Assembly (NCBI RefSeq): GCF_003231495.1
Contig: NZ_PQWO01000002.1
Location: 390,001 to 422,000, forward strand
DNA: 32,000 nucleotides
Direction of reading: 5' to 3'
From: Acaryochloris thomasi RCC1774
Lineage (GTDB): Bacteria > Cyanobacteriota > Cyanobacteriia > Thermosynechococcales > Thermosynechococcaceae
Notes under the pieces: model-generated
Databases searched by the model: none
Seen by the model: the letters and a program-made list of their open reading frames with translations, nothing else
What the model was told of the DNA's origin: nothing
In this document: one piece after another, positions 276 through 20,106 of the stretch
How positions within the stretch are numbered: the first letter of the stretch is position 1
How the letters are laid out: every line of letters begins with the position of its first letter
Translations under genes and position numbers: made by a program

Positions 276-851
276 TTAAAAGATTCGCTGTAGCTTTAGA
301 ACAAAGCCGTGCAGGATATTCTCTCCGTCAAGCTGATGTGGCGAAGACAGCACTTCTTTCTGTTGCCCCTGTCTAAAAATCTCTACTTGTCGATCTTGAG
401 GGTTGAGGAGCCAGCCGAGGCGGGTGCCGTTATCGATATATTCCTGCATTTTGTCTTGCAGGGGGCGGAGTGTGTCGCTAGGTGATCTCAGTTCAATAAC
501 AAAGTCTGGGCATAGGGGCGGGAAGGTTCTGCGTTCTTCAAGTGTCAGGACATTCCACTTTGCCAGTGGAATCCAGGCGGCATCAGGTGAACGAAAGGCT
601 CCATTGGGCAAACGAAACATAGTGCTGGAATCGAAGGACTCCCCGGTGCCGTCTTGGTCAGTCCAGTTGCCGAGCTGCTGAGTTAGTCTGCGATTGCGAT
701 GTCCGCTTTCTCCGCCTGTGGGTGGCATAACAACTAATTCACCACTGGCAGTGCGTTCAAGTTTGGCGTCTGGATTGGCATGACAAAGCTTGAGGAATTG
801 TTGGTCAGTCAGTTGGACAAGTGGTTCTAGGGTCAGTGTGACTGTGTTCAT
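276..851 (-). CDS. Uma2 family (DUF820) PD-(D/E)XK-type endonuclease
   Basis: 191-aa ORF. The core PDFVIELRSPSD, together with the upstream GGESG and DAAW segments, matches the pattern of the Uma2/DUF820 putative restriction endonuclease family, which is highly expanded in cyanobacteria. Confidence 0.8.
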   Translation of the reverse strand: MNTVTLTLEPLVQLTDQQFLKLCHANPDAKLERTASGELVVMPPTGGESGHRNRRLTQQLGNWTDQDGTGESFDSSTMFRLPNGAFRSPDAAWIPLAKWNVLTLEERRTFPPLCPDFVIELRSPSDTLRPLQDKMQEYIDNGTRLGWLLNPQDRQVEIFRQGQQKEVLSSPHQLDGENILHGFVLKLQRIF

Positions 852-1007: not shown

Positions 1008-1244
1008 CTAAAGATAGCGCCGCTGAAATTGTGGGTCGATGCGATCGCATTTCTTACGGTTGCAGCGCTGACAAAGCGTATGCAGATTGCTGATATCGTT
1101 GGGGCCACCCTTCGCCAACGGAATGATGTGATCCACTTCTAAGGGAACGTGTGATTGGCTGCAGCTCTGACATTGGTGACCATCTCTAGCCAGGACATAA
1201 CTTCTGACACCTACAGGGATAGGAATGCGAGGTGTTTTATCCAT
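1008..1244 (-). CDS. minimal HNH endonuclease (78 aa)
   Basis: CQSC...EVDHIIPLAKGGPNDISNLHTLCQRCNRKK gives paired CxxC zinc ligands, the catalytic DH, and the N...H of the HNH beta-beta-alpha-metal fold. Its ATG lies 2 nt after the stop of the upstream gene. Confidence 0.85.
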   Translation of the reverse strand: MDKTPRIPIPVGVRSYVLARDGHQCQSCSQSHVPLEVDHIIPLAKGGPNDISNLHTLCQRCNRKKCDRIDPQFQRRYL

Positions 1245-1246
1245 GT

Positions 1247-1594
1247 CTACCCGTGACCATTTACTTGAGTCGTTTCTTGCCTCAGTGCATCTAAAGGAGA
1301 TTCTGTGCTTGATGCTTGTTCCGCAGCTGGTTCGTCAGTTGCCTCTTCTGGTGAATCTGGACAAAACTCGATGACAACCCGAAATTTGCCAGTTTGCCAA
1401 CCTTCACCATTTGGTCTTAATACATGACAGCTAAATCCTTCGCTGAATACTAGCTTCTCTTGATTACTTCTGGCCCATCCATCTTTCAAGTCAATCAATA
1501 GTTCCTTCGCTTTAAAGGTGTAAGGTAGACTCTTTGTTTCTCCGATGGGCGAAATTACATCACAGCTAGAAAGAATGACAGAATTTTTTTGCAT
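1247..1594 (-). CDS. divergent KGK-domain-like protein (unknown function)
   Basis: 115-aa ORF. EGWQTGKFRVVIEFCPDSPEE aligns with QGWQKGKVRFKVTLEFYPDEPE of the neighbouring paralogue. It has an acidic, low-complexity C-terminal tail. Confidence 0.6.
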   Translation of the reverse strand: MQKNSVILSSCDVISPIGETKSLPYTFKAKELLIDLKDGWARSNQEKLVFSEGFSCHVLRPNGEGWQTGKFRVVIEFCPDSPEEATDEPAAEQASSTESPLDALRQETTQVNGHG

Positions 1595-1613
1595 GGTATA
1601 CCTCGAAGGAAAA

Positions 1614-1988
1614 TTACTGGTTCTGATAGCTGCTAGGTTCTCTAAGAGCGTCTAGTCCTGATTCATTCATTTCTGGCTCGTCTGGATAAAACTCAAGCGT
1701 AACTTTGAATCTCACCTTGCCTTTCTGCCAGCCCTGAGAACTCGGTTCAAGAATTTCGCAGTCTAAACCATCGGTAAACCATGCTTCACGATAATTTTCT
1801 GGTTTGTCAATCGGGAACTTGCCACGGCCCTCATCCCAGATCATTTTGCCTAGTTGATTCAATCCGTGGTCTTGGAAAGCCGTTAACGCATATTGCATTA
1901 GCTCTTTTTGCTTGAACATATTAGAGCTAATCGAAACGGCTGTACCCTCGTCATTAAAGGGTTTAAATTTTGGATTGGAGTAGTTCAT
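1614..1988 (-). CDS. KGK domain protein (cyanobacteria-restricted domain of unknown function)
   Basis: The ORF track gives 1614..2051. I prefer the internal ATG at 1988 (MNYSNPKFKPF...), which aligns with the start of the upstream paralogue (MNNSDIQFESL...). It contains the eponymous GWQKGKVRF motif followed by LEFYPDEPE. Confidence 0.7.
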   Translation of the reverse strand: MNYSNPKFKPFNDEGTAVSISSNMFKQKELMQYALTAFQDHGLNQLGKMIWDEGRGKFPIDKPENYREAWFTDGLDCEILEPSSQGWQKGKVRFKVTLEFYPDEPEMNESGLDALREPSSYQNQ

Positions 1989-2077
1989 CGTTAATATTTT
2001 CAGTATGAGCAGTGGTTGATTCGATTTTGGGGGCCAAGATGCGGCTGCCAAGAGCAGCTGAAATTACCAAGATCTTC

Positions 2078-2418
2078 TTATCTCAGGGCATCTAGCTCTG
2101 ATTCATTCATTTCTGGCTTGTCTGGACAAAAGTCAAGAATGACTCTGAATCTCACCTTCCCTTTTGCTAGCCCTGAGAGTTAGCGCTTAGAAGCTCGCAC
2201 TCAAGACCTTTCTCAAACCAAGTCTTACCTGCATTAGCGGGAAATTTTCCCTGCCCTCTTTCTTCAACAATTTGCCCTAATCTTTCCAGCCCTTTAGTTC
2301 TAAAAGCTTCTAGGGTAAATTCCTTGAGTTCTGTCGGTTTCAACAGATTTGATTGCATCGAGATAACGGTTGTATCGCTATCGTTTAGGGATTCAAATTG
2401 AATGTCTGAGTTGTTCAT
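2078..2418 (-). pseudogene. KGK domain paralogue disrupted by a nonsense change plus a 1-nt deletion
   Basis: The track ORF 2167..2418 ends ...SANSQG*. Sense strand here reads cag ggc TAG ca- aaa ggg aag gtg aga ttc. The paralogue reads cag ggc TGG cag aaa ggc aag gtg aga ttc. After the frameshift the reading continues KGKVRFRVILDFCPDKPEMNESELDALR* to the TAA at 2078..2080. Confidence 0.65.
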
Positions 2419-2457
2419 TGCCGATGTTGTTGAAGTGAGCTGTGGTGGAATCTAGTG

Positions 2458-4977
2458 CTATCTTGAGTTCTGCCAGCCGTTTTGTCCCGTAGTCACCAAC
2501 TCTGAAATGACAGCCGGTGAGGCTTCTACGCCATTGAGTGATAGTTCCGGCTCGATGTCACCTAAAGAAGCAGTCATTGCAGGAACTAACGCTAAATCTG
2601 ACTCCTGAATTTCGGGCAGCTTTTGGCTTTGTTCTCCGAGCGGCATGATTCCCAGAGACTGTTTAACGCTGGTGATGGACTGGTTGTAGACCTCAATCTT
2701 TTGACGGACCGCCTCTTGCCTCCGCTGATTTTCTTTGAGTGTTTCTTCAGCTTCTGCCGCCAACGTTTTTGCCAAATAAAGACGGGCCTTTTGTTGCTGC
2801 TGCAGAATACTATCGGCCAGTTCCTGAGCAACTGGTAACAGATGATTGATCAAGGTCGTATTCACCGTTGGCCGAAAAGCGGTCATCACTGTTTTTTGTA
2901 CCTTTTGCTCAAAATCTAGCTTCAGTAGTTGTCGAATGGCAGGCTCAGCATCTACCATGCTTTGGTAGTCATAGCCACCGCAGGCTTGCTGCAGGGTTTG
3001 CCGAAGCTGCCAAACTGAAACGGTACCCTCAGCATAGAAATCGGGCTGTTCACGGACATAGCGATCGCACTCCACCTTCGCTTCATTGCGAATGGCATGG
3101 CAGGCTTGTTCCTGCAGTTTTGTGAGTTGTTGCTCAATGCCGCTATCGCTGCCTAGCACTCTTAGCAGTTCACTGTAATAGTCCTGCTGCTGAATCTTTT
3201 CCTTCAGATGCTGGAAAAAACAGACGACCAGCTCTTGCGATGCATCAACTAAAGTTTCTTCTAGACCATCCGCTAGATAATAAAAGGCTTCTGCCAAGAT
3301 GCCCAGCAACGGCACCACAGCATGGCGCTTGTGGGTCGCTTGGGCCTGTTCATGAACACTGGCAACCAAAAAGCTGCTTAGTAACTCATCTAGCTGCTTC
3401 ACCATGCGGCTTTGAAGCTTGATGAAGCTGCCTTCAAAAGCCTGATTATTTTTGCTGGCTGCGATCTGGGTGAGTTCTTGCTCAAGATGCGTTTGCAGAG
3501 CATCGCCAATCTTTTTAAGGATTGGATTAATTTGACGGAGTTCTTTTTCTTGAATCGCTTCCACATTACGGGGCTGGCTATCGAAGTGCTGCCAAGTCTC
3601 GATATAGGTTTGGCGCAAACCTTGGCAAAGCGGTGAAAGATCATCAACCAGCGCTGCAAACAGTTGAGGTCGCTTCTCTTCCGTTAGATAGCGGGTGATC
3701 GCGCTGCGGAAGTTTTCGACGCCGCTGTCTTTAACCAATTGCTCAATCAGCGGGGTGCCGTTCTCTGTGAGAATCCGTACGTAATTTTCATTCGGGCGCT
3801 CGTAGCCTCTCGCTTCTGGCCGGAAGGGACTGCCGATCAGCTTGCCAGAAGTGGCACAGTAGTTATTGAATTCAGTGACGAACAGGGGCGCTTCCTCTTG
3901 AGCGCTACTTCCTTTAATCTCTTCTGCAAATAGCGTGTCGAGGCCAAAGCGATTGCTCCGATCTGTCTTTCTAATCTGGCTACCGTAAAATCCTAAGAGA
4001 CCACTGGTTTGATAAACGCGATCGCTATTCTGGAACTGTTTGTGCAGAATCGATTCTAGGCGCTGGCGCAGTTGAGGGTTGTACCAAGTCTTATCGATGC
4101 GGTTGAAGGTGTAGAAAACGCGATTGCGAATCCCAGGATTAGAGCGAACCGTTTCCAGTAGCTCTGTCTCTTCTGTGGTGAGTTCCCCTGTTTCAGCAGG
4201 CTTCAAGACACAGACTACAGCAGACGTATCTGGATCTCTGATCCTGTCATAGGTCAGTTCAGCATCTTTTTTGACCGGAGCATCAATTCCAGGCGTGTCA
4301 ATCAGAACGTTGCCGTCTTTCAGTAATTCGTCATGGCAGTAGTACTCAATTCGCTTAAGAACTGCACTGTTAGCTCCTCTACGGGCATAGCCAGCTGCCT
4401 CCTGAAGCGTTGAGAAACTGAAATGTTCCATCGGATAGGTCGCATTCGCTTCTGGCTGGATATAGTTTTCGTTATGCATATATCCCTCAATTAAGAGGTC
4501 TAAAGCAGAAGCGCGTTTCGCTCTGTCTGAACGACTTTCTCCGCCTTCTTCTTGAATGACTTGTTGGCAGGTTGCTTGTACGCTTTTGAGATCTCCTACA
4601 ACGGTGCCATCGATCATAAAGCCTAGACTCTGAATGAGGAGTCGAGCCTGTTCAAAGATTTCAACGTGACTCAGAAAAGTAAGGATTACTCGCTCTTGTC
4701 CCTGCTCAGCGTAGGCAATCTGGCATTCTGTCCCCGTTGCGTGCCCTTCCGCGCTGTAGAGCAACTTGCGCTCTAGCAAAGCGTTGATTAGCATTGACTT
4801 CCCAGCACTAAAAGCGCCTGCAAACACAATCTCAAAGGTGGGCGACACAGCTTTGCGGAGTGAGCTTTGAATTGCGGAAACATCCTGTGAGTGTAAATCT
4901 GGCTCTTGATAGGCTAGCTCTAAAAGCTGATGGACTTGATCTTGGAGGTTCAGATTCGTATCAACAGATTGAGTCAT
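2458..4977 (-). CDS. bacterial dynamin-like protein (dynamin-family large GTPase, 839 aa)
   Basis: G1 is FAGAFSAGKSMLINALL, G3 is LIDTPGIDAP, and G4-like is TFNRID. These are followed by about 500 aa of helical/coiled-coil stalk (for example QQQQKARLYLAKTLAAEAEETLKENQRRQEAVRQKIE). This is BDLP/DynA-type architecture. Confidence 0.85.
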   Translation of the reverse strand: MTQSVDTNLNLQDQVHQLLELAYQEPDLHSQDVSAIQSSLRKAVSPTFEIVFAGAFSAGKSMLINALLERKLLYSAEGHATGTECQIAYAEQGQERVILTFLSHVEIFEQARLLIQSLGFMIDGTVVGDLKSVQATCQQVIQEEGGESRSDRAKRASALDLLIEGYMHNENYIQPEANATYPMEHFSFSTLQEAAGYARRGANSAVLKRIEYYCHDELLKDGNVLIDTPGIDAPVKKDAELTYDRIRDPDTSAVVCVLKPAETGELTTEETELLETVRSNPGIRNRVFYTFNRIDKTWYNPQLRQRLESILHKQFQNSDRVYQTSGLLGFYGSQIRKTDRSNRFGLDTLFAEEIKGSSAQEEAPLFVTEFNNYCATSGKLIGSPFRPEARGYERPNENYVRILTENGTPLIEQLVKDSGVENFRSAITRYLTEEKRPQLFAALVDDLSPLCQGLRQTYIETWQHFDSQPRNVEAIQEKELRQINPILKKIGDALQTHLEQELTQIAASKNNQAFEGSFIKLQSRMVKQLDELLSSFLVASVHEQAQATHKRHAVVPLLGILAEAFYYLADGLEETLVDASQELVVCFFQHLKEKIQQQDYYSELLRVLGSDSGIEQQLTKLQEQACHAIRNEAKVECDRYVREQPDFYAEGTVSVWQLRQTLQQACGGYDYQSMVDAEPAIRQLLKLDFEQKVQKTVMTAFRPTVNTTLINHLLPVAQELADSILQQQQKARLYLAKTLAAEAEETLKENQRRQEAVRQKIEVYNQSITSVKQSLGIMPLGEQSQKLPEIQESDLALVPAMTASLGDIEPELSLNGVEASPAVISELVTTGQNGWQNSR

Positions 4978-5076: not shown

Positions 5077-5095
5077 TATACTTGTCATACAAGTA
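5077..5095 (+). promoter_or_regulatory. putative -10 box (TATACT) overlapped by a perfect palindrome, TACTTGT-CAT-ACAAGTA; candidate antitoxin operator
   Basis: 7-bp inverted arms with a 3-bp spacer at 5079..5095. This sits 17 nt upstream of the RHH antitoxin ATG (5112). TATACT is at 5077..5082. Confidence 0.4.
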
Positions 5096-5111: not shown

Positions 5112-5369
5112 ATGCTTACGGTCAGACTCAATGAAGAAACTGAACGACAGCTTGCTGAGCTGTTAGCTCATGAGACGAATGCTAATCGCAGCGACCTGAT
5201 TAAACGGCTCATTCGTGAGCGCTGGCTGAGCTTGCAACTGGGTAAGACAATCGTGGAGCGGCGAGGTGGACATCCTCAGCATCTCTTAACGGATGCGTCG
5301 CCAGATCGCTCTGAACGCTCCAATCGAAAGCAAGCGATCGCAAACTATTTACAAAATCGCCATTCGTGA
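5112..5369 (+). CDS. ribbon-helix-helix (CopG/VapB-like) antitoxin
   Basis: The N-terminus MLTVRLNEETERQLAELLAHETNANRSDLIKRLIRERW shows the typical RHH beta-strand plus two-helix pattern. Its stop overlaps the start of the downstream PIN gene (GTGA overlap). Confidence 0.75.
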   Translation: MLTVRLNEETERQLAELLAHETNANRSDLIKRLIRERWLSLQLGKTIVERRGGHPQHLLTDASPDRSERSNRKQAIANYLQNRHS

Positions 5370-5797
5370 CCTATCACCCGGTCATCTTGATCGACAGCGG
5401 TATTTTGTTCGCGTACTATAGCGCCAGCGATCATCATCATGTGTCTGTGTGTACCTTTTTTGAGCAATGCACTAGCCGGTTACTGACAACGCCAAGCTAC
5501 ATCACTGAAGTGATGTGGCTGCTGAGTGCCCAGTGGCAAACCCAGAATGAATTCTTGCTCGATGTTGCGAAGGAAATTTATGAGTGTGCAACGCTACTCC
5601 CCCAGGACTTCTGTCGGATTGCGGAGCTGAATGCTCAGTATGCAGATCTACCGGGTGACTTTGCAGATTTAACTCTCGTTGCACTTTCTGAGCGCCTAGA
5701 TATCTCTGCCATTGCAACGCTAGATAGCGATTTTAATCTGTACCGACGGTATCGAAAGCAGCCCTTCGATCGCGTATTTTTGCCAGAGTACTCATAG
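5366..5797 (+). CDS. PIN-domain (VapC-like) toxin ribonuclease
   Basis: 143 aa. The conserved acidic positions are in the expected order: ILIDSG (D), ITEVMW (E), DLTLVAL (D), TLDSDF (D). It is translationally coupled to the RHH gene. Confidence 0.8.
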   Translation: MTYHPVILIDSGILFAYYSASDHHHVSVCTFFEQCTSRLLTTPSYITEVMWLLSAQWQTQNEFLLDVAKEIYECATLLPQDFCRIAELNAQYADLPGDFADLTLVALSERLDISAIATLDSDFNLYRRYRKQPFDRVFLPEYS

Positions 5798-6291: not shown

Positions 6292-8547
6292 GTGGAGGCG
6301 ATCGCAACTCTCAAAACCCCTATGGTCGCCCAAACATCCAAAAACACCGGCTTTGACCAGCTCCACGAACAGGTTCAGCGCTGGATTTATGCCCAAGGCT
6401 GGCCGGGACTTCGACCGATCCAAGACGCCGCCGTCTCCCCGATTCTATCTCGCAAATCTGATGTAATCATCACCGCCGCTACCGCAGGGGGTAAAACTGA
6501 AGCCGCTTTTCTACCCGTCTTTTCTCAACTCGTCACCCATCCCGGTAAAAGTATCCAGGTCATTGGCCTAAGTCCCCTCAAGGCCCTCATCAACGACCAG
6601 CATCGACGGCTGGCAGAAATCGGAGAAGGCTTAAGGATTCCAGTCAACGCTTGGCATGGTGACATCGCCTCTGGGAAAAAGAAGCGCGTCCTAGAAAACC
6701 CTGCTGGAGTGGTTCTGATTACCCCTGAATCGTTAGAAGCTCTATTTGTACTCAGAGGCACGCAGCTTGCCGAGCTATTTAAAGATCTGCAGTACATCGT
6801 CATTGATGAAATGCATTCCTTCATTGGCTCTGAGCGAGGCCGACAGATGCAGTCCTTGATGCATCGGGTGGAGCTTGTTGTGGGTAAGCGGGTCATGCGC
6901 GTGGGCCTGAGTGCAACGCTGGGCGATATGTCCCTGGCTGCTGAGTTCTTACGGCCCGGTCATGGTGATGGCGTACAGCTCATTCAGTCAGGCGGCAAAG
7001 ATCAGGACATCAAGCTACAGATCCGAGGGTATGTAAAGCCTGCGTTTGAAGATGACGACGATGTAGATGAAGTACCCAAGGATGAAATGGATCTGCAGCC
7101 TTCTGCGGATGCGATCGCAATTGCGGGTGATTTGTTCAAAGCTTTGCGGGGCGATAAAAACCTGATCTTCATCAACAGCCGTCGTCAGGTGGAGCGGTAT
7201 GCCGATCTGCTGCGATATATGTCCATTGAGCGGCGGGTGCCCAATGAGTTTTTGCCCCACCACGGCAGTCTTGCTAAGGAGCTACGCCAAGAAGCGGAAG
7301 ATGCCCTCAAAGCAGAAGATCGACCGTCCAATGTCATTTGTACAATGACGCTGGAAATGGGCATTGATGTGGGTTCGGTGAAGTCTATTGCTCAGGTGGG
7401 TCCGCCTAGCTCAGTGGCGAGTACCTGTCAGCGCTTGGGACGCTCAGGCCGACGGGCGGGGGAGTCTGCCATTATGCGGGTGTACATTTCAGAACCGGAG
7501 GTAACGCCCAGTACGCCGATTACGAACAGCCTGTATTTTGATTTGGTGCAGGCGATCGCAATCTTCACACTTTTGCTAGAAGGCTGGTTCGAGCCCCCCA
7601 TCATCGGACGCCTGCAGCTCTCGACCCTCATTCAGCAGCTTCTGTCTTTGATTGCTCAGCAAAGCGGCGTCAGACCGGACCAGGCTTGGGACTTCCTCTG
7701 TCGTACAGGCCCCTTTGCCGCCGTCGATCAAGATATCTTTATGGAGCTGCTGCGGACCCTCGGCCACCACGATCTGATCCAGCAAAGTCAGGATGGCTTG
7801 CTTCTACTCGGTATAAAAGGCGAAAAACAGGTTAATCACTATACGTTTTATACAGCGTTCGCCACCCAAGACGAATACCACCTAGTCTCAGATGGCCGAA
7901 CTCTAGGTTCCTTGCCGGTTCGGTCGCCTTTGGTCGAGGGAATGTTTCTGATTTTTGCCGGTCGCCGTTGGGAAGTGATGAGCGTCGATGAACACCGAGG
8001 CAAAGTTGAAGTGATCGGAGCCTCCTCCGGTAAAGCCCCAGATTTTGGAGGTTCTAGCGGTTTTGTACATGATAGATTGCGTCAAACCATGTATAAAATC
8101 TATCTCTCGGATCAGATTCCAGGGTTTCTAGATGAAACGGCCCGTGATTTGCTGCAGACGGCGCGGCAGCAGTTTCGCGACCAGGGCCTGCATCAGACTC
8201 AGGCCCTGGAAGATGGCCGTAGTACTTTGCTATTCCCTTGGCGGGGGAGCGTGATTACGAACACGTTGTTTGTACAGCTATTGGATCGAGGATTGAAGGT
8301 GCAGAACCAAGGGGTGACGCTGAAGGTAAATGGTCTGGATGGGGAAGGGTTGCGATCTCATCTCTTAGAGCTCCTCAACCAAGGCCCCGCTGATCCAGTG
8401 GAGCTAGCGGCAGCCGTCAAAAACAAACGCAACGATAAGTACGACCGCTTTCTCAGTGACGACCTGCTCTGTCGCAACTACGCCGCCAGCCACCTCGATG
8501 CCCAAGGGGCCTGGAGTGTGCTAGAGGAATTATTGGAATCGATCTAA
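6292..8547 (+). CDS. Lhr-like DEAD/DEAH-box (DExH) superfamily 2 helicase
   Basis: Motif I is TAATAGGKTEAAFLP, followed by SPLKALINDQ. Motif II is VIDEMH and motif III is SATLG. Then HHGSLAKELRQEAE, TLEMGIDVG, and motif VI QRLGRSGRR. A ~320-aa C-terminal region follows the core. The start is either GTG 6292 or ATG 6322. Confidence 0.85.
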   Translation: MEAIATLKTPMVAQTSKNTGFDQLHEQVQRWIYAQGWPGLRPIQDAAVSPILSRKSDVIITAATAGGKTEAAFLPVFSQLVTHPGKSIQVIGLSPLKALINDQHRRLAEIGEGLRIPVNAWHGDIASGKKKRVLENPAGVVLITPESLEALFVLRGTQLAELFKDLQYIVIDEMHSFIGSERGRQMQSLMHRVELVVGKRVMRVGLSATLGDMSLAAEFLRPGHGDGVQLIQSGGKDQDIKLQIRGYVKPAFEDDDDVDEVPKDEMDLQPSADAIAIAGDLFKALRGDKNLIFINSRRQVERYADLLRYMSIERRVPNEFLPHHGSLAKELRQEAEDALKAEDRPSNVICTMTLEMGIDVGSVKSIAQVGPPSSVASTCQRLGRSGRRAGESAIMRVYISEPEVTPSTPITNSLYFDLVQAIAIFTLLLEGWFEPPIIGRLQLSTLIQQLLSLIAQQSGVRPDQAWDFLCRTGPFAAVDQDIFMELLRTLGHHDLIQQSQDGLLLLGIKGEKQVNHYTFYTAFATQDEYHLVSDGRTLGSLPVRSPLVEGMFLIFAGRRWEVMSVDEHRGKVEVIGASSGKAPDFGGSSGFVHDRLRQTMYKIYLSDQIPGFLDETARDLLQTARQQFRDQGLHQTQALEDGRSTLLFPWRGSVITNTLFVQLLDRGLKVQNQGVTLKVNGLDGEGLRSHLLELLNQGPADPVELAAAVKNKRNDKYDRFLSDDLLCRNYAASHLDAQGAWSVLEELLESI

Positions 8548-15244: not shown

Positions 15245-15655
15245 ATGAAACCGTTTTATCTGCTGGGGCTATTGGGCCTATTGCTGCCGCTGGCGATCCA
15301 GCCTGCCGAAGCTAAGAGCTGCAGTCCCTACCGTATTAACTATGAAGGAGCGATTACGCAGGGCATTATCCGGCGACCTTCACTCGTGAGCAATGCGAAT
15401 CAATCTTGGCGCTTGTTCCATGTGGCAATGGATCGCAACGACCGTATGGAAGCGGCATCACGAGCGGCCCAATATCTGGTTATTGTTTCTGAACGCAATG
15501 GTACAGCTCAAGCCCATCGAGCACGGCAGCTTGTGGAGTCAGAGTTTACCCGCCGTTACGATCAGCCAGTTGAAGTAGCAATGCCTATCTTTGAGATCAT
15601 TCTCGCCAATAGCGAGGTTGACTGCGAGACTAATTTGGCGCGCCGGATTCGATAG
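15245..15655 (+). CDS. hypothetical secreted protein
   Basis: The ATG at 15245 gives signal peptide MKPFYLLGLLGLLLPLAIQPAEA. I recognise no family. Its 3' end overlaps the convergent GTPase gene by 26 nt. Confidence 0.55.
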   Translation: MKPFYLLGLLGLLLPLAIQPAEAKSCSPYRINYEGAITQGIIRRPSLVSNANQSWRLFHVAMDRNDRMEAASRAAQYLVIVSERNGTAQAHRARQLVESEFTRRYDQPVEVAMPIFEIILANSEVDCETNLARRIR

Positions 15656-16982
15656 GGAGCGGCGTCAAGTTCTGCCGCAGTCGGTAGAGAAGCATGTCTG
15701 GCTTGAGGGCTTGGAGCATCTGATAAATGATTGTGCTGGGTCCGATAGGCCCCCAGGTTGCACCTTGGATTAGGTAGGTTTGAGTTGCCTGCCCGATTTT
15801 TTGAGCGCCGTAGGCGGCGACGCCAGCCTGGGCAATCGCACCGCTCACGAGCGGCAGTAGGTTTCCTGCATTATCTATAATGGCGGCATCGCCCCCGAGG
15901 CCAAAAAGAATGCCGCTCACTATTTCTATGAGTAGAATACTGCCTATATTTGAGAAGAGTCGTTGCCAAATCTGATCGACGCGATAGCGACTGGTGGGTA
16001 GGCCGTAGTGCCTTACTAATGCACCCACTAGTAAGAGATCAAAGAGGCCGCATCCGAGTAGGTCGAGAAAGAGGAAGGGGAGAAGTGCGATCGCAACTCC
16101 CTTAACCACCAAAAATTTTCCAATCAGCGCCTCAGCCGACTTAGAATAATTCTCCGCAAGCCGCTGAGAAATCTCCTGCTCAATACCTTCTGCCTGGAGT
16201 AGGGCGTTCACCGTCAGCAATCCACGTCCTTCTTGATTGAGCAGTTTCAACAAACGCTGGCGCAGAGATTCCACATTGGGGGGCGGCACCTCCCAGTCTT
16301 CTTTAGAGCGACCATCGGGCCATTCTGAACGTACTGGAACGGGGGCTGGGGCTGCTGCTGTGAGCAGAATTTCGTTGGACGTTAGCACCTGCTGTAGGTT
16401 CGCCAGTTTTTCGTAGATTGTCTCTGGCTGCAGATTCGGGTACAGATCAGCCTTATTGACCACCATTAATATGGGCCGCTGAACCTGTCGAAGTTCTCCG
16501 AGCGCCGCTAATTCCTCTGGGGTGGGTGCTCCGGCCACGATAAACAGAATCAAATCAGCAGTACTGGCAATATCACGGGCCATCTGCGCTCGGCCCTGGC
16601 CTTCGATTTCATCAAGGCCGGGGGTATCGATTAGCTCAATCTGGAGGCTGGCATTCTCTATCTCAGCCAGGGTTGGGGACCAGCGCACCGAGCGAGGCCA
16701 CTGAGTTTCGCCATTAAGTGGTCCGACCGGGAAGATAGGTTCGGCAAAGAGGGCATTGAGGACAGCGGATTTCCCGCGACTGACAAAGCCAAAGGCCGCA
16801 ATTTGGATTAGATTTTGACTGAGCTTGTTCTGTAGACCTGTGAGTACCCCAAGCTGATTTTGCAGCTCTGACTGTAGCTCTAGTGGCAGTTGCCCATGAT
16901 CTTGAATCATCTGCTGGAGGCTTTGTGTCGCGCGATCTTGCAGGGCTGTTTGCCAGTCTGTAGCTTGATTGGCGATTGGCAT
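15630..16982 (-). CDS. GTP-binding protein with C-terminal DUF697-type membrane domain
   Basis: G1 is AFGFVSRGKSAVLNAL, G3 is LIDTPGLDE, and G4 is VVNKADL. The C-terminal third is glycine-rich and hydrophobic (GVAIALLPFLFLDLLGCGLFDLLLVGALV ... SGAIAQAGVAAYGA). Confidence 0.75.
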   Translation of the reverse strand: MPIANQATDWQTALQDRATQSLQQMIQDHGQLPLELQSELQNQLGVLTGLQNKLSQNLIQIAAFGFVSRGKSAVLNALFAEPIFPVGPLNGETQWPRSVRWSPTLAEIENASLQIELIDTPGLDEIEGQGRAQMARDIASTADLILFIVAGAPTPEELAALGELRQVQRPILMVVNKADLYPNLQPETIYEKLANLQQVLTSNEILLTAAAPAPVPVRSEWPDGRSKEDWEVPPPNVESLRQRLLKLLNQEGRGLLTVNALLQAEGIEQEISQRLAENYSKSAEALIGKFLVVKGVAIALLPFLFLDLLGCGLFDLLLVGALVRHYGLPTSRYRVDQIWQRLFSNIGSILLIEIVSGILFGLGGDAAIIDNAGNLLPLVSGAIAQAGVAAYGAQKIGQATQTYLIQGATWGPIGPSTIIYQMLQALKPDMLLYRLRQNLTPLPIESGAPN

Positions 16983-18450: not shown

Positions 18451-19905
18451 TTATGTTGCCGATTCTAATAACCCACCCTGACGGCGGAATCTTCCAATTG
18501 CCTTCTGGGAGAAATCTTTGAGTCCCTCAAGCTGCTGTTGCGCGACAAATACTCTTTCCATCGTTTTCTTCAGCTTCTCTGGCTGCCAGTTGCTCTCTGG
18601 TGATACTAATTCCAGCGCATTTAGCTCCTGAAAATGCTCTGTTAGGCTGAGACCCGCTACGTGGGTTAAATGAGCTGCACTAACGCCCTGGAGCAAGCCG
18701 CCCGCGACGAAGGTGAAGGCATGTCCCTTTAGTAAAGCGCTCAATGCTTGGGTTGAAATTTCTACTAAACCGAGCTTCAGCATGGCGCTAGCCATTGTGC
18801 TGGCGATCGCTTGGGCCTGATTGACCGAAAACTTGAGCCGGTAAAGACTACCTAAATCCATTACCATTTTGCCGGAGATAGCAGCAGCGGCTAACAGATC
18901 CAATGTCGGAACGGGGTTGGCAAAGGCGGTAGCTCCCGTAATCCACTGGTAGCGCTCAATGATTGGCTGCGCTAATTCGTGACGAGTTTGGTTGAGCTGA
19001 ACTTGAATTTCAGATTGGAGGCTCAGGGTCTGCTGGTATGTTTGCTGCAGAATGAGCTGTTCGGTATCTTCAGCGATGATCTGATTGAGTCGCTGCGTTA
19101 GAGCTTTGATATCTGGCTCGGGAGCTTCCAGGATTTCGTGATAGGAACCGTCTTCTTGGTAGCGGCGGACTTTTATGGGGTTGGGCTGGGATGCGATCGC
19201 AACCACATCAACAACAGATTCTTCACCCTGCAACTGCTGCTTAATCTTTTCCTGTAAGACTGTCCGCTGAGCAGGCAAATACTGGTCCTGCTTATTGAAC
19301 AACACCAGCATCTGCTTTTGGTATGCGTCTAAAGCCTGCAAACATTGGAACTCTGACTGTGTCAGATCGCCCTGAGTCACAAACAGGACCACGTCCGCCG
19401 TTGAGAGGGGCTGCGGAAGCTGCTTAAACGTTCCCAATGTTTCTAGAGCATTGGCAGGGGGCACTGCTTCAGTCAGTAACTGGCTGCTTTCGCTAAAGCC
19501 ACAATTGAACTGCCCTTTAAGCAGATCCAAAACAGTGGATTTGCCCACACCGCTGTTGCCCATCACCGTGAGCTGGAGCGTCTCGCGTTCCAGACCTGTC
19601 TTTACCTCTGTCAACTGTGGCTTCCAGGATTCTGCTGCTTCACCCACCATCTCTTCTAGATGATCAATCAGCGTCTCAGTCTTGGCAAACGTTTTCTGGA
19701 CCGTCTGACGCGTTACCGCCGCCGTCTCCAGAGGCGCAATCTCTTTGCGACCGACCTTCAGCCACACCGCCAGAATGCCCAGCCCCAAGACAAGGCCCGT
19801 GACCATAAAGTCAGAGAAGCCGCGCTCATCTGGTATTAAGAAGTACAGGGCAAAGATAATGGCCCCCGCTCCCCACATCAGACGCTGTTTTGTTTGGGCA
19901 GACAT
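18451..19905 (-). CDS. GTPase-like protein with N-terminal TM segments and a C-terminal DUF697-type membrane domain; switch II is divergent
   Basis: G1 is VMGNSGVGKSTVLDLL and G4 is LFNKQD. The position equivalent to DTPG reads ETLG. The track ORF runs to 20043 but would overlap the tRNA and its terminator, so the likely start is ATG 19905 (MSAQTKQ...) or ATG 19944. Confidence 0.7.
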   Translation of the reverse strand: MSAQTKQRLMWGAGAIIFALYFLIPDERGFSDFMVTGLVLGLGILAVWLKVGRKEIAPLETAAVTRQTVQKTFAKTETLIDHLEEMVGEAAESWKPQLTEVKTGLERETLQLTVMGNSGVGKSTVLDLLKGQFNCGFSESSQLLTEAVPPANALETLGTFKQLPQPLSTADVVLFVTQGDLTQSEFQCLQALDAYQKQMLVLFNKQDQYLPAQRTVLQEKIKQQLQGEESVVDVVAIASQPNPIKVRRYQEDGSYHEILEAPEPDIKALTQRLNQIIAEDTEQLILQQTYQQTLSLQSEIQVQLNQTRHELAQPIIERYQWITGATAFANPVPTLDLLAAAAISGKMVMDLGSLYRLKFSVNQAQAIASTMASAMLKLGLVEISTQALSALLKGHAFTFVAGGLLQGVSAAHLTHVAGLSLTEHFQELNALELVSPESNWQPEKLKKTMERVFVAQQQLEGLKDFSQKAIGRFRRQGGLLESAT

Positions 19906-19980
19906 ACCTGGACCCCTCTCGTATGGGTATATTCTCATCGCCATTCTCGCAGAAATTAGCCCGAAATCGCAGGGTTTGTC

Positions 19981-20021
19981 ACAAAAGAACAGCCCCAGGA
20001 AAGTTAGCTTTCCTGGGGCTG
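19981..20021 (-). terminator. Rho-independent terminator downstream of tRNA-fMet
   Basis: On the minus strand: cagccccaggaaag-ctaa-ctttcctggggctg, a perfect 14-bp stem, followed by ttcttttgt. Confidence 0.6.
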
Positions 20022-20029
20022 TTCGTGCT

Positions 20030-20106
<77 letters not shown>

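Follow-up and report, generated by a model that had tools for sequence, protein, structure and literature searches.

What is the compact cluster of a dynamin-like GTPase gene, KGK-domain genes and a very small HNH nuclease gene on the minus strand of the Acaryochloris thomasi RCC1774 genome, and does it represent a new defence system? The cluster occupies positions 1008 to 4977 of a stretch of 32,000 nucleotides (nt) (assembly GCF_003231495.1, contig NZ_PQWO01000002.1, positions 390,001 to 422,000), which we call the window. An initial annotation had regarded it as a candidate undescribed system in a defence-like neighbourhood. We conclude, with a probability of roughly 0.9, that it is the A. 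thomasi copy of the operon of the KGK clade of bacterial dynamin-like proteins (BDLPs). According to this reading it consists of an orthologue of SynDLP, three KGK genes, of which two are intact and one is dead, and a minimal HNH gene, the HNH being a regular third component that is co-inherited with the GTPase, and the module is chromosomal and vertically inherited and not a mobile defence island. The five minus-strand open reading frames (ORFs), their coordinates, gaps and domains were reproduced from the ORF list, the sequence and Pfam, and are listed here in the order GTPase to HNH.

2458-4977, minus strand: GTPase gene, 839 amino acids (aa); Pfam Dynamin_N, 56 bits
2078-2418, minus strand: KGK-a, decayed KGK gene, 83-aa ORF at 2167-2418 with a remnant out of frame to 2078; Pfam KGK, 30.5 bits
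1614-1988, minus strand: KGK-b, intact, 124 aa from the ATG at 1988; Pfam KGK, 82.9 bits
1247-1594, minus strand: KGK-c, intact, 115 aa, motif GWQTGK; Pfam KGK, 56.5 bits
1008-1244, minus strand: minimal stand-alone HNH nuclease (His-Me finger), 78 aa; Pfam HNH_5 (PF14279), 61.5 bits, and HNH (PF01844), 53.8 bits

All Pfam matches in these five ORFs lie above the curated cut-offs, which for KGK is 25.6 bits. Read from the sequence in the same order, the intergenic gaps measure 39, 89 (or 26), 19 and 2 nt, the last being the distance from the KGK-c stop to the HNH start. No minus-strand terminator-like sites were found within 1008-4977, and internal promoter-like sites were no more frequent in the cluster than expected by chance.

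The GTPase, KGK and HNH proteins of the cluster

The GTPase is an orthologue of SynDLP (Slr0869) of Synechocystis sp. PCC 6803 over its full length. In a phmmer search it matched PDB entry 7zw6_A (Slr0869) with 920 bits (E = 8e-276) over residues 9-802 in both proteins. The G-domain motifs are shared as well, with the extended P-loop GAFSAGKSMLINALL at residues 54-68, DTPG at 227 and NRID at 292. An extended P-loop of the form GxxxxGKS/TxL/INALL/I was defined for cyanobacterial BDLPs by Jilly et al. 2018, who sorted 121 such proteins into clades and defined a "KGK clade" by a KGK gene located downstream (PMC5827413). Gewehr et al. 2023 placed SynDLP in this clade and described the structure of its oligomer by cryo-electron microscopy (PDB 7zw6; PMC10104851). 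In A. thomasi, as in Synechocystis, KGK (PF08872) follows the GTPase immediately downstream on the same strand, here with three matches of 30.5, 82.9 and 56.5 bits. The linkage of GTPase and KGK has thus already been described, and the cluster is its A. thomasi copy. Contrary to the earlier statement, a coupling of BDLP and KGK proteins had been described, since Jilly et al. defined the clade, of which SynDLP is a member, by exactly this linkage. Homologues of the GTPase span the cyanobacteria at 57-85% identity.

The A. thomasi locus differs from SynDLP in having three KGK copies, one of them dead, together with an HNH gene, and in the replacement of the cysteines of the BSE domain. In SynDLP two cysteines form a disulfide in this domain and are said to be conserved throughout the clade (PMC10104851). 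The GTPase of the window has neither of them (N8 and S774). Among 22 aligned homologues a cysteine was present at the first site in 18 and at the second in 19. P0001, the closest relative of the GTPase, has both replaced as well (H and S), and two further close relatives lack the first cysteine alone. The BSE cysteines are a stated property of the KGK clade and not its definition.

Three tandem KGK genes had been annotated. All three Pfam matches stand, and two of the genes are intact. The third, KGK-a, is a pseudogene, because the tryptophan codon of its GWQKGK motif, TGG in KGK-b, has become TAG and a 1-nt deletion six bases further on shifts the frame. Its Pfam match is confined to profile positions 2-77 of 119. 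Apart from these changes the 3' part closely resembles KGK-b, and the remainder of the domain runs out of frame to 2078. For KGK-b the mechanical ORF extends from 1614 to 2051, with a TTG start at 2051 and 145 aa. Its true start is probably the ATG at 1988, and the resulting 124-aa product is 100% identical to P0168, C1752_00942 of A. thomasi RCC1774. The KGK motif is intact in KGK-b (GWQKGK) and KGK-c (GWQTGK). With isoelectric points (pI) of 4.8 and 4.7 both proteins are acidic, and the HNH protein of the window is basic (pI 9.2), as are the respective families, with median values of 5.0 for KGK and 9.5 for HNH. In the AlphaFold2 model of KGK-b (mean predicted local distance difference test score 80) a beta hairpin is followed by a long helix and a second hairpin bearing the GWQKGK turn, and then by a low-confidence acidic tail with a conserved SPLDxxR peptide. 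A Foldseek search with this fold against the PDB returned no solved relative (best E = 1, template modelling score 0.18). All KGK proteins in our alignments end in an acidic tail of this low-confidence kind, in which a PDEPE...SPLDxxR peptide (residues ~100-116 of KGK-b; present also in KGK-c) is nearly invariant and looks like a short docking motif.

The KGK family comprises 1512 clusters at 50% identity. No fusion to another domain was found among the best 150 of these 1512 clusters and all 70 database matches, where KGK occurs only stand-alone or as a double KGK. A single double-KGK protein of 240 aa takes the place of two genes, with the HNH still following, in loci L047 (7854-8576) and L099 (5001-5723). 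Copy number per locus ranges from 0 to 5 among the 42 evaluable loci of the census described below, and a solitary KGK away from the GTPase was seen in locus L101. We also considered position-fixed KGK subtypes, one proximal to the GTPase and one to the HNH, and rejected them: the best cross-locus match keeps its position in 41-45% of comparisons, which is about chance. The absence of positional orthology between loci means that the KGK duplications are lineage-specific. This agrees with the tandem amplification and decay of the small genes suggested from the window, as KGK duplicates and decays lineage by lineage.

The HNH protein, 100% identical to P0121 of A. thomasi, carries the signature CxxC...DH...N...CxxCN with two CxxC zinc pairs. 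Among 45 HNH sequences from the fetched loci, residues C25, C28, D38, H39, N53, C58, C61 and N62 are invariant, and judged by these intact catalytic residues the enzyme looks active. Its model adopts the beta-beta-alpha-metal fold. Foldseek matched this model with a probability of 1.00 to McrA, Gme HNH and GVE2 HNH, and the HNH domains of Cas9 and Cap5 were matched as well. Fold and signature are common to EcoKMcrA, the Geobacter Gme HNH nickase (4h9d), the HNH of phage GVE2 (5h0m) and the HNH of IscB and Cas9. In contrast to these solved nucleases the window protein has only 78 aa and no DNA-recognition domain, and its ends carry KTPRIPIP and a DPRF-type motif. These end motifs are shared by its closest relatives and absent from three more distant ones in the alignment. 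A homologue search with the 78-aa protein gave 11 candidates, a sample of how frequent the subfamily is away from the GTPase. Relatives of at least 62% identity with fetched context lie beside KGK or the GTPase (L009, L016), and relatives of 48-53% identity lie amid many small same-strand ORFs of phage-like appearance.

Conservation of the module among cyanobacteria

We collected 98 loci with relatives of the GTPase by a genome scan, a metagenome scan and individual homologue look-ups. ORFs were called and searched with iteratively built profiles for KGK, HNH, Uma2 and the GTPase. The loci fell into 55 clusters at 90% GTPase identity, and 42 were evaluable, having at least 2.4 kb of downstream sequence. 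Downstream of the GTPase these contained the following.

KGK and HNH: 26 of 42 loci
HNH only: 5 of 42 loci
KGK only: 5 of 42 loci
neither KGK nor HNH: 6 of 42 loci

A same-strand HNH gene thus lies downstream of the GTPase in 31 of the 42 loci and KGK likewise in 31, and the objection that these genes might not be syntenic with the GTPase in other genomes fails. Within 3 kb of the GTPase in the 55 clusters, 30 HNH genes lie downstream against a single one upstream (binomial p = 3.5e-8), and for KGK there are 74 downstream and none upstream. The co-occurrence beyond chance that the initial annotation had asked about is therefore borne out. The presence of KGK is associated with that of HNH (odds ratio 6.2, p = 0.02). 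Of the 26 loci that have both genes, 17 show a distance of -8 to +9 nt between the stop of the final KGK gene and the start of the HNH gene, and in the five loci with HNH only the nuclease gene follows directly after the GTPase gene.

Moreover, GTPase and HNH diverge in step. Compared over the same pairs of loci, the GTPases share a median identity of 60.3%, the HNH proteins of 62.5% and the best-matching KGK proteins of 35.6%. The pairwise identities of GTPase and HNH correlate with r = 0.70, a value reached by none of 2000 label permutations in a Mantel test. A selfish or homing HNH gene was considered and rejected because of the fixed position, the co-divergence with the GTPase and the conserved end motifs of the subfamily. 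Besides, three clusters share a conserved ORF of 80 aa (...FPWLYE[IV]KTKAGI...H[AT]G...F[RK]CEWL), which lies close behind the module or a bare GTPase gene, at these positions:

L054: 9017-9259
L066: 7935-8180
L086: 7805-8071

The HNH gene has received little attention in the literature. The available text of the two SynDLP and KGK papers (PMC5827413, PMC10104851) does not mention HNH. In the supplementary table of Jilly et al. "HNH nuclease" is given as the downstream gene in 3 of 19 KGK-clade rows (PMC5827413). A literature search combining KGK, HNH, dynamin and defence found nothing relevant. The HNH is an under-described, regular partner of the known GTPase-KGK cluster. As to expression, slr0868, slr0869 (SynDLP), slr0870 and slr0871 were all derepressed 6-16 fold in a Synechocystis lexA mutant (PMC4759255, Table 1). 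The gene downstream of the Synechocystis GTPase is marked KGK in the table of Jilly et al. (PMC5827413), and from the locus-tag order alone we take it to be slr0870. A search of the regions upstream of the GTPase gene in 89 loci detected neither the Anabaena-type LexA box RGTACNNNDGTWCB nor a GTAC-N-GTAC motif. SigC- or SigE-dependence has also been reported for slr0869, as well as a higher abundance in a dacA mutant.

Genomic surroundings and known defence systems

The flanking families that recur across GTPase clusters are housekeeping ones: PCC domain, GH57/DUF3536, GDYXXLXY, DUF2157, SppA, RsmB/F, GST and Na/Ca exchanger, with Uma2 in addition in a few clusters. In at least eight clusters the PCC-domain (PF03479) gene, coding for ~135 aa, is found a short way upstream of the GTPase gene and on the other strand, often with RsmB/F beyond it; the window has an RHH-PIN pair in its place. 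Examples are:

L004: 6288-6689, minus strand
L103: 835-1248, minus strand
L064: 4473-4871, minus strand
L056: 4479-4874, minus strand

In a descriptive count with no matched control set, the 150 nearest neighbours of the GTPase clusters gave at most 5 matches to any one PADLOC family and 2 to Uma2-type models. No homologues of the GTPase were found on 72,556 plasmids, and tblastn found no KGK homologues in 50,697 phage records. PADLOC and NCBIfam assigned GTPase, KGK and HNH to no known system, the only PADLOC matches being weak P-loop or generic HNH ones. Taken descriptively, neighbours, plasmids and phages do not support a module that is mobile or located in a defence island, as the initial annotation had supposed.

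The genes that gave the window its defence-like appearance are present:

276-851, minus strand: Uma2, 157 bits
5112-5369, plus strand: RHH, weak match of 19.5 bits, just below the cut-off of 20.5
5366-5797, plus strand: PIN
6292-8547, plus strand: DEAD/Helicase_C/WH_Lhr helicase, 751 aa

So far the description of the neighbourhood was right, with the RHH match being weak; elsewhere the recurring flanks are housekeeping genes, and the defence-like surroundings are local to the A. thomasi window and not a property of the module. The remaining genes of the window are likewise of housekeeping type (MenF, MenC, a P450, two DUF697 GTPases and a subunit of the ATP synthase alpha/beta family). The closest relative (85% identity) shows the identical order GTPase-KGK-KGK-HNH-Uma2, surrounded by SecDF, a transketolase-family gene (pyrimidine-binding and C-terminal domain), HemN and RNase HII.

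Uma2-family genes adjoin the module in about 8 of the 55 clusters, and in Synechococcus PCC 6312 a Uma2 gene lies between two KGK genes. Positions beside the module are:

L009: 13675-14244
L011: 12882-13544
L008: 10837-11460
L046: 7496-8095
L045: 547-1122
L027: 3059-3655

Uma2 is very abundant in cyanobacteria, and its place beside the module may therefore reflect opportunistic insertion. The RHH-PIN pair (5112-5797, plus strand) is divergent from the GTPase gene, and 18 nt ahead of the RHH start lies a perfect palindrome, ACTTGTCATACAAGT at 5080-5094, which is probably the RHH operator. In a relative at 85% identity (L009, 9268-9680) the RHH gene is kept and PIN is reduced to a fragment of 52 residues; RHH is also present in a relative at 94% identity (L007, 1495-1740). 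The 751-aa helicase matched the PADLOC profile of SngC (Shango) from end to end with 883 bits and that of BrxHI with 417 bits. We rejected Shango for this gene, as its neighbours are RHH, PIN and an opposite-strand methyltransferase and no SngA or SngB partners were seen among them. This leaves an Lhr/SngC-like helicase that is an orphan or else a component of something unrecognised. Two more GTPase genes with DUF697 are found at 15630-16982 and 18451-20043 (both minus strand), 10-15 kb from the SynDLP orthologue, and one of them also matches MMR_HSR1 and the P-loop of Dynamin_N.

DynA and Eleos had been cited as precedents for phage resistance by dynamin-like GTPases; profile searches place the GTPase of the window in neither. 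DynA of Bacillus subtilis is, like the window protein, a bacterial membrane-acting dynamin-like GTPase, and both have been proposed to act after membrane damage or phage infection. DynA differs in consisting of two fused dynamin-like units and in acting without a nuclease, whereas the window GTPase has a single G domain. Its match to the DynA-type family NF052648 of NCBIfam reached 42.2 bits against a cut-off of 1600, with a single Dynamin_N match. Eleos likewise contains dynamin-family GTPases. Its set of LeoA and LeoBC comes without KGK and HNH, whereas the cluster has one GTPase gene, and the PADLOC profiles matched weakly (LeoA 28.7 bits over residues 25-70, that is 46 residues of a 559-position profile; LeoBC 25.1 bits). 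Septu, formed by the ATPase PtuA and the HNH protein PtuB, resembles the cluster in that a large NTPase with long helical arms stands beside a small HNH as the would-be output. PtuA is an ABC/SMC-type ATPase and not a dynamin-like GTPase, and KGK is an additional third small protein here. Membership was rejected, with weak PtuB matches (20.3 bits, E = 1e-4) and no PtuA match in the cluster. A looser likeness links the cluster with Zorya and MksBEFG, which combine an NTPase or membrane machine with a nuclease. The likeness to Septu, Zorya and MksBEFG is one of design and not membership.

Working model, rival explanations and significance

What might such an operon do? In vitro SynDLP oligomerises, hydrolyses GTP and binds negatively charged membranes (PMC10104851). 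Furthermore, it binds thylakoid lipids and fuses membranes with no partner needed (PMC10104851, PMC9950537). In our working model the GTPase, assumed by orthology to SynDLP to be an oligomerising GTP hydrolase that binds and remodels negatively charged membranes, would act as sensor and scaffold. The acidic, fast-evolving KGK proteins, whose folded core bears the invariant turn GWQKGK and whose acidic tail, with SPLDxxR, is disordered, would be adaptors or regulators. The basic HNH would be the output, produced along with KGK and restrained, by inactivity or tethering, up to the moment of GTPase assembly at a perturbed membrane; it would then nick or cut DNA at that membrane. Membrane damage, including phage entry or lysis, might be the trigger, and the purpose could be immunity or, under stress, the management of DNA and membranes of the cell itself. 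We infer this model and rate it a little below even odds. The whole explanation, operon identity and working model together, seems to us about as probable as its opposite.

Several points weigh against our explanation. The contacts among GTPase, KGK and HNH, the regulation of the nuclease and its trigger are all deduced, and the adaptor role of KGK is read solely from charge, size and gene order, since the KGK fold matches nothing solved. HNH and KGK are each missing in 11 of the 42 loci (six lack both), so that neither is obligatory for the GTPase. The census itself is centred on the GTPase, draws on metagenome contigs and a few genomes and falls short of a full survey with phylogenetic weighting. 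Co-divergence of GTPase and HNH is expected of any vertically inherited pair and excludes repeated independent insertion, not functional independence. The SynDLP papers explain the activities in vitro without a partner and mention no nuclease (PMC10104851). In the model organism Synechocystis an HNH is only a possibility, slr0871 being listed as "unknown protein" (PMC4759255).

The rival closest to the initial annotation is a dedicated anti-phage system, in which the GTPase would detect infection at the membrane, KGK proteins would serve as sensors or specificity factors and the HNH would degrade phage or host DNA in abortive infection. KGK indeed evolves about twice as fast as its partners, occurs in 0 to 5 copies with lineage-specific duplication, and has left a fresh pseudogene in the window. 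A small nuclease with an intact active site would be a typical effector, and its nearest folds include McrA and the HNH of the CBASS protein Cap5. About a quarter of the loci have lost the accessory genes, and of the 56 species that Jilly et al. surveyed only a part has the KGK clade (PMC5827413). Low basal expression under a repressor in Synechocystis (PMC4759255), the contribution of B. subtilis DynA to phage resistance (cited in PMC10104851) and the suggestion of the SynDLP authors that the protein acts in repair after phage infection (PMC10104851) also fit this idea. However, the PADLOC matches are only weak P-loop or generic HNH ones, the GTPase is absent from plasmids and KGK from phages in the searched records, the recurring flanks are of housekeeping type and few of the 150 nearest neighbours match defence models. 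Moreover, from one cyanobacterial order to another GTPase and HNH retain about 60% identity and track each other, which fits slow vertical descent better than the turnover typical of defence genes. We therefore regard a dedicated anti-phage system as possible but unlikely. A second rival, that the GTPase, perhaps tuned by KGK, only repairs or fuses thylakoid or cytoplasmic membranes and that the HNH is a co-transcribed passenger with a role in DNA housekeeping or none, draws on the partner-free action of SynDLP on membranes (PMC10104851, PMC9950537), the 11 of 42 loci lacking HNH and the same housekeeping context. A pure passenger fails to account for the fixed position, the coupling and the co-divergence of the HNH: across orders it keeps its position, its coupling to KGK, its invariant catalytic residues and the end motifs of its subfamily, stays directly behind the GTPase where KGK has been lost and diverges in step with the GTPase. 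A role in membrane remodelling alone is accordingly improbable.

The small genes might also be read without the GTPase, as a toxin-antitoxin or immunity pair lodged behind its gene, in which the acidic KGK would inhibit a basic HNH DNase as in colicin DNase/Im pairs. Opposite charges (pI ~5 and ~9.5), tight translational coupling and a small, fast-evolving, multicopy partner reminiscent of immunity-gene arrays speak for such a pair. Co-occurrence is not obligatory, however, and the pair fails because ten loci hold one gene without the other (five HNH without KGK and five KGK without HNH); L101 even holds a solitary KGK. Besides, KGK lies beside the GTPase too consistently for a lodged cassette (74 downstream, 0 upstream), the pair was not found on plasmids or phages as far as tested, and the HNH has no delivery domain. 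We consider this explanation very improbable.

We therefore return to the KGK-clade operon with a regular nuclease partner. The cluster belongs to a described type, and the defence-like look of its surroundings is not conserved. Beside the GTPase the HNH is found as regularly as KGK, each in 31 of 42 loci, and its divergence follows that of the GTPase, which calls for experiments on DNA as well as on membranes. The nuclease partner is a testable lead on the function of KGK and on the physiological one of SynDLP, which is the most thoroughly studied dynamin-like protein of cyanobacteria. A dynamin-gated nuclease, cyanobacteria-wide and chromosomally fixed, in which the GTPase would control a DNA nuclease through rapidly evolving KGK adaptors in immunity or in a damage response, is a tentative and on balance doubtful proposal. 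If true, it would provide KGK, whose family numbers more than 1500 sequence clusters, with a first role and SynDLP with a physiological output.

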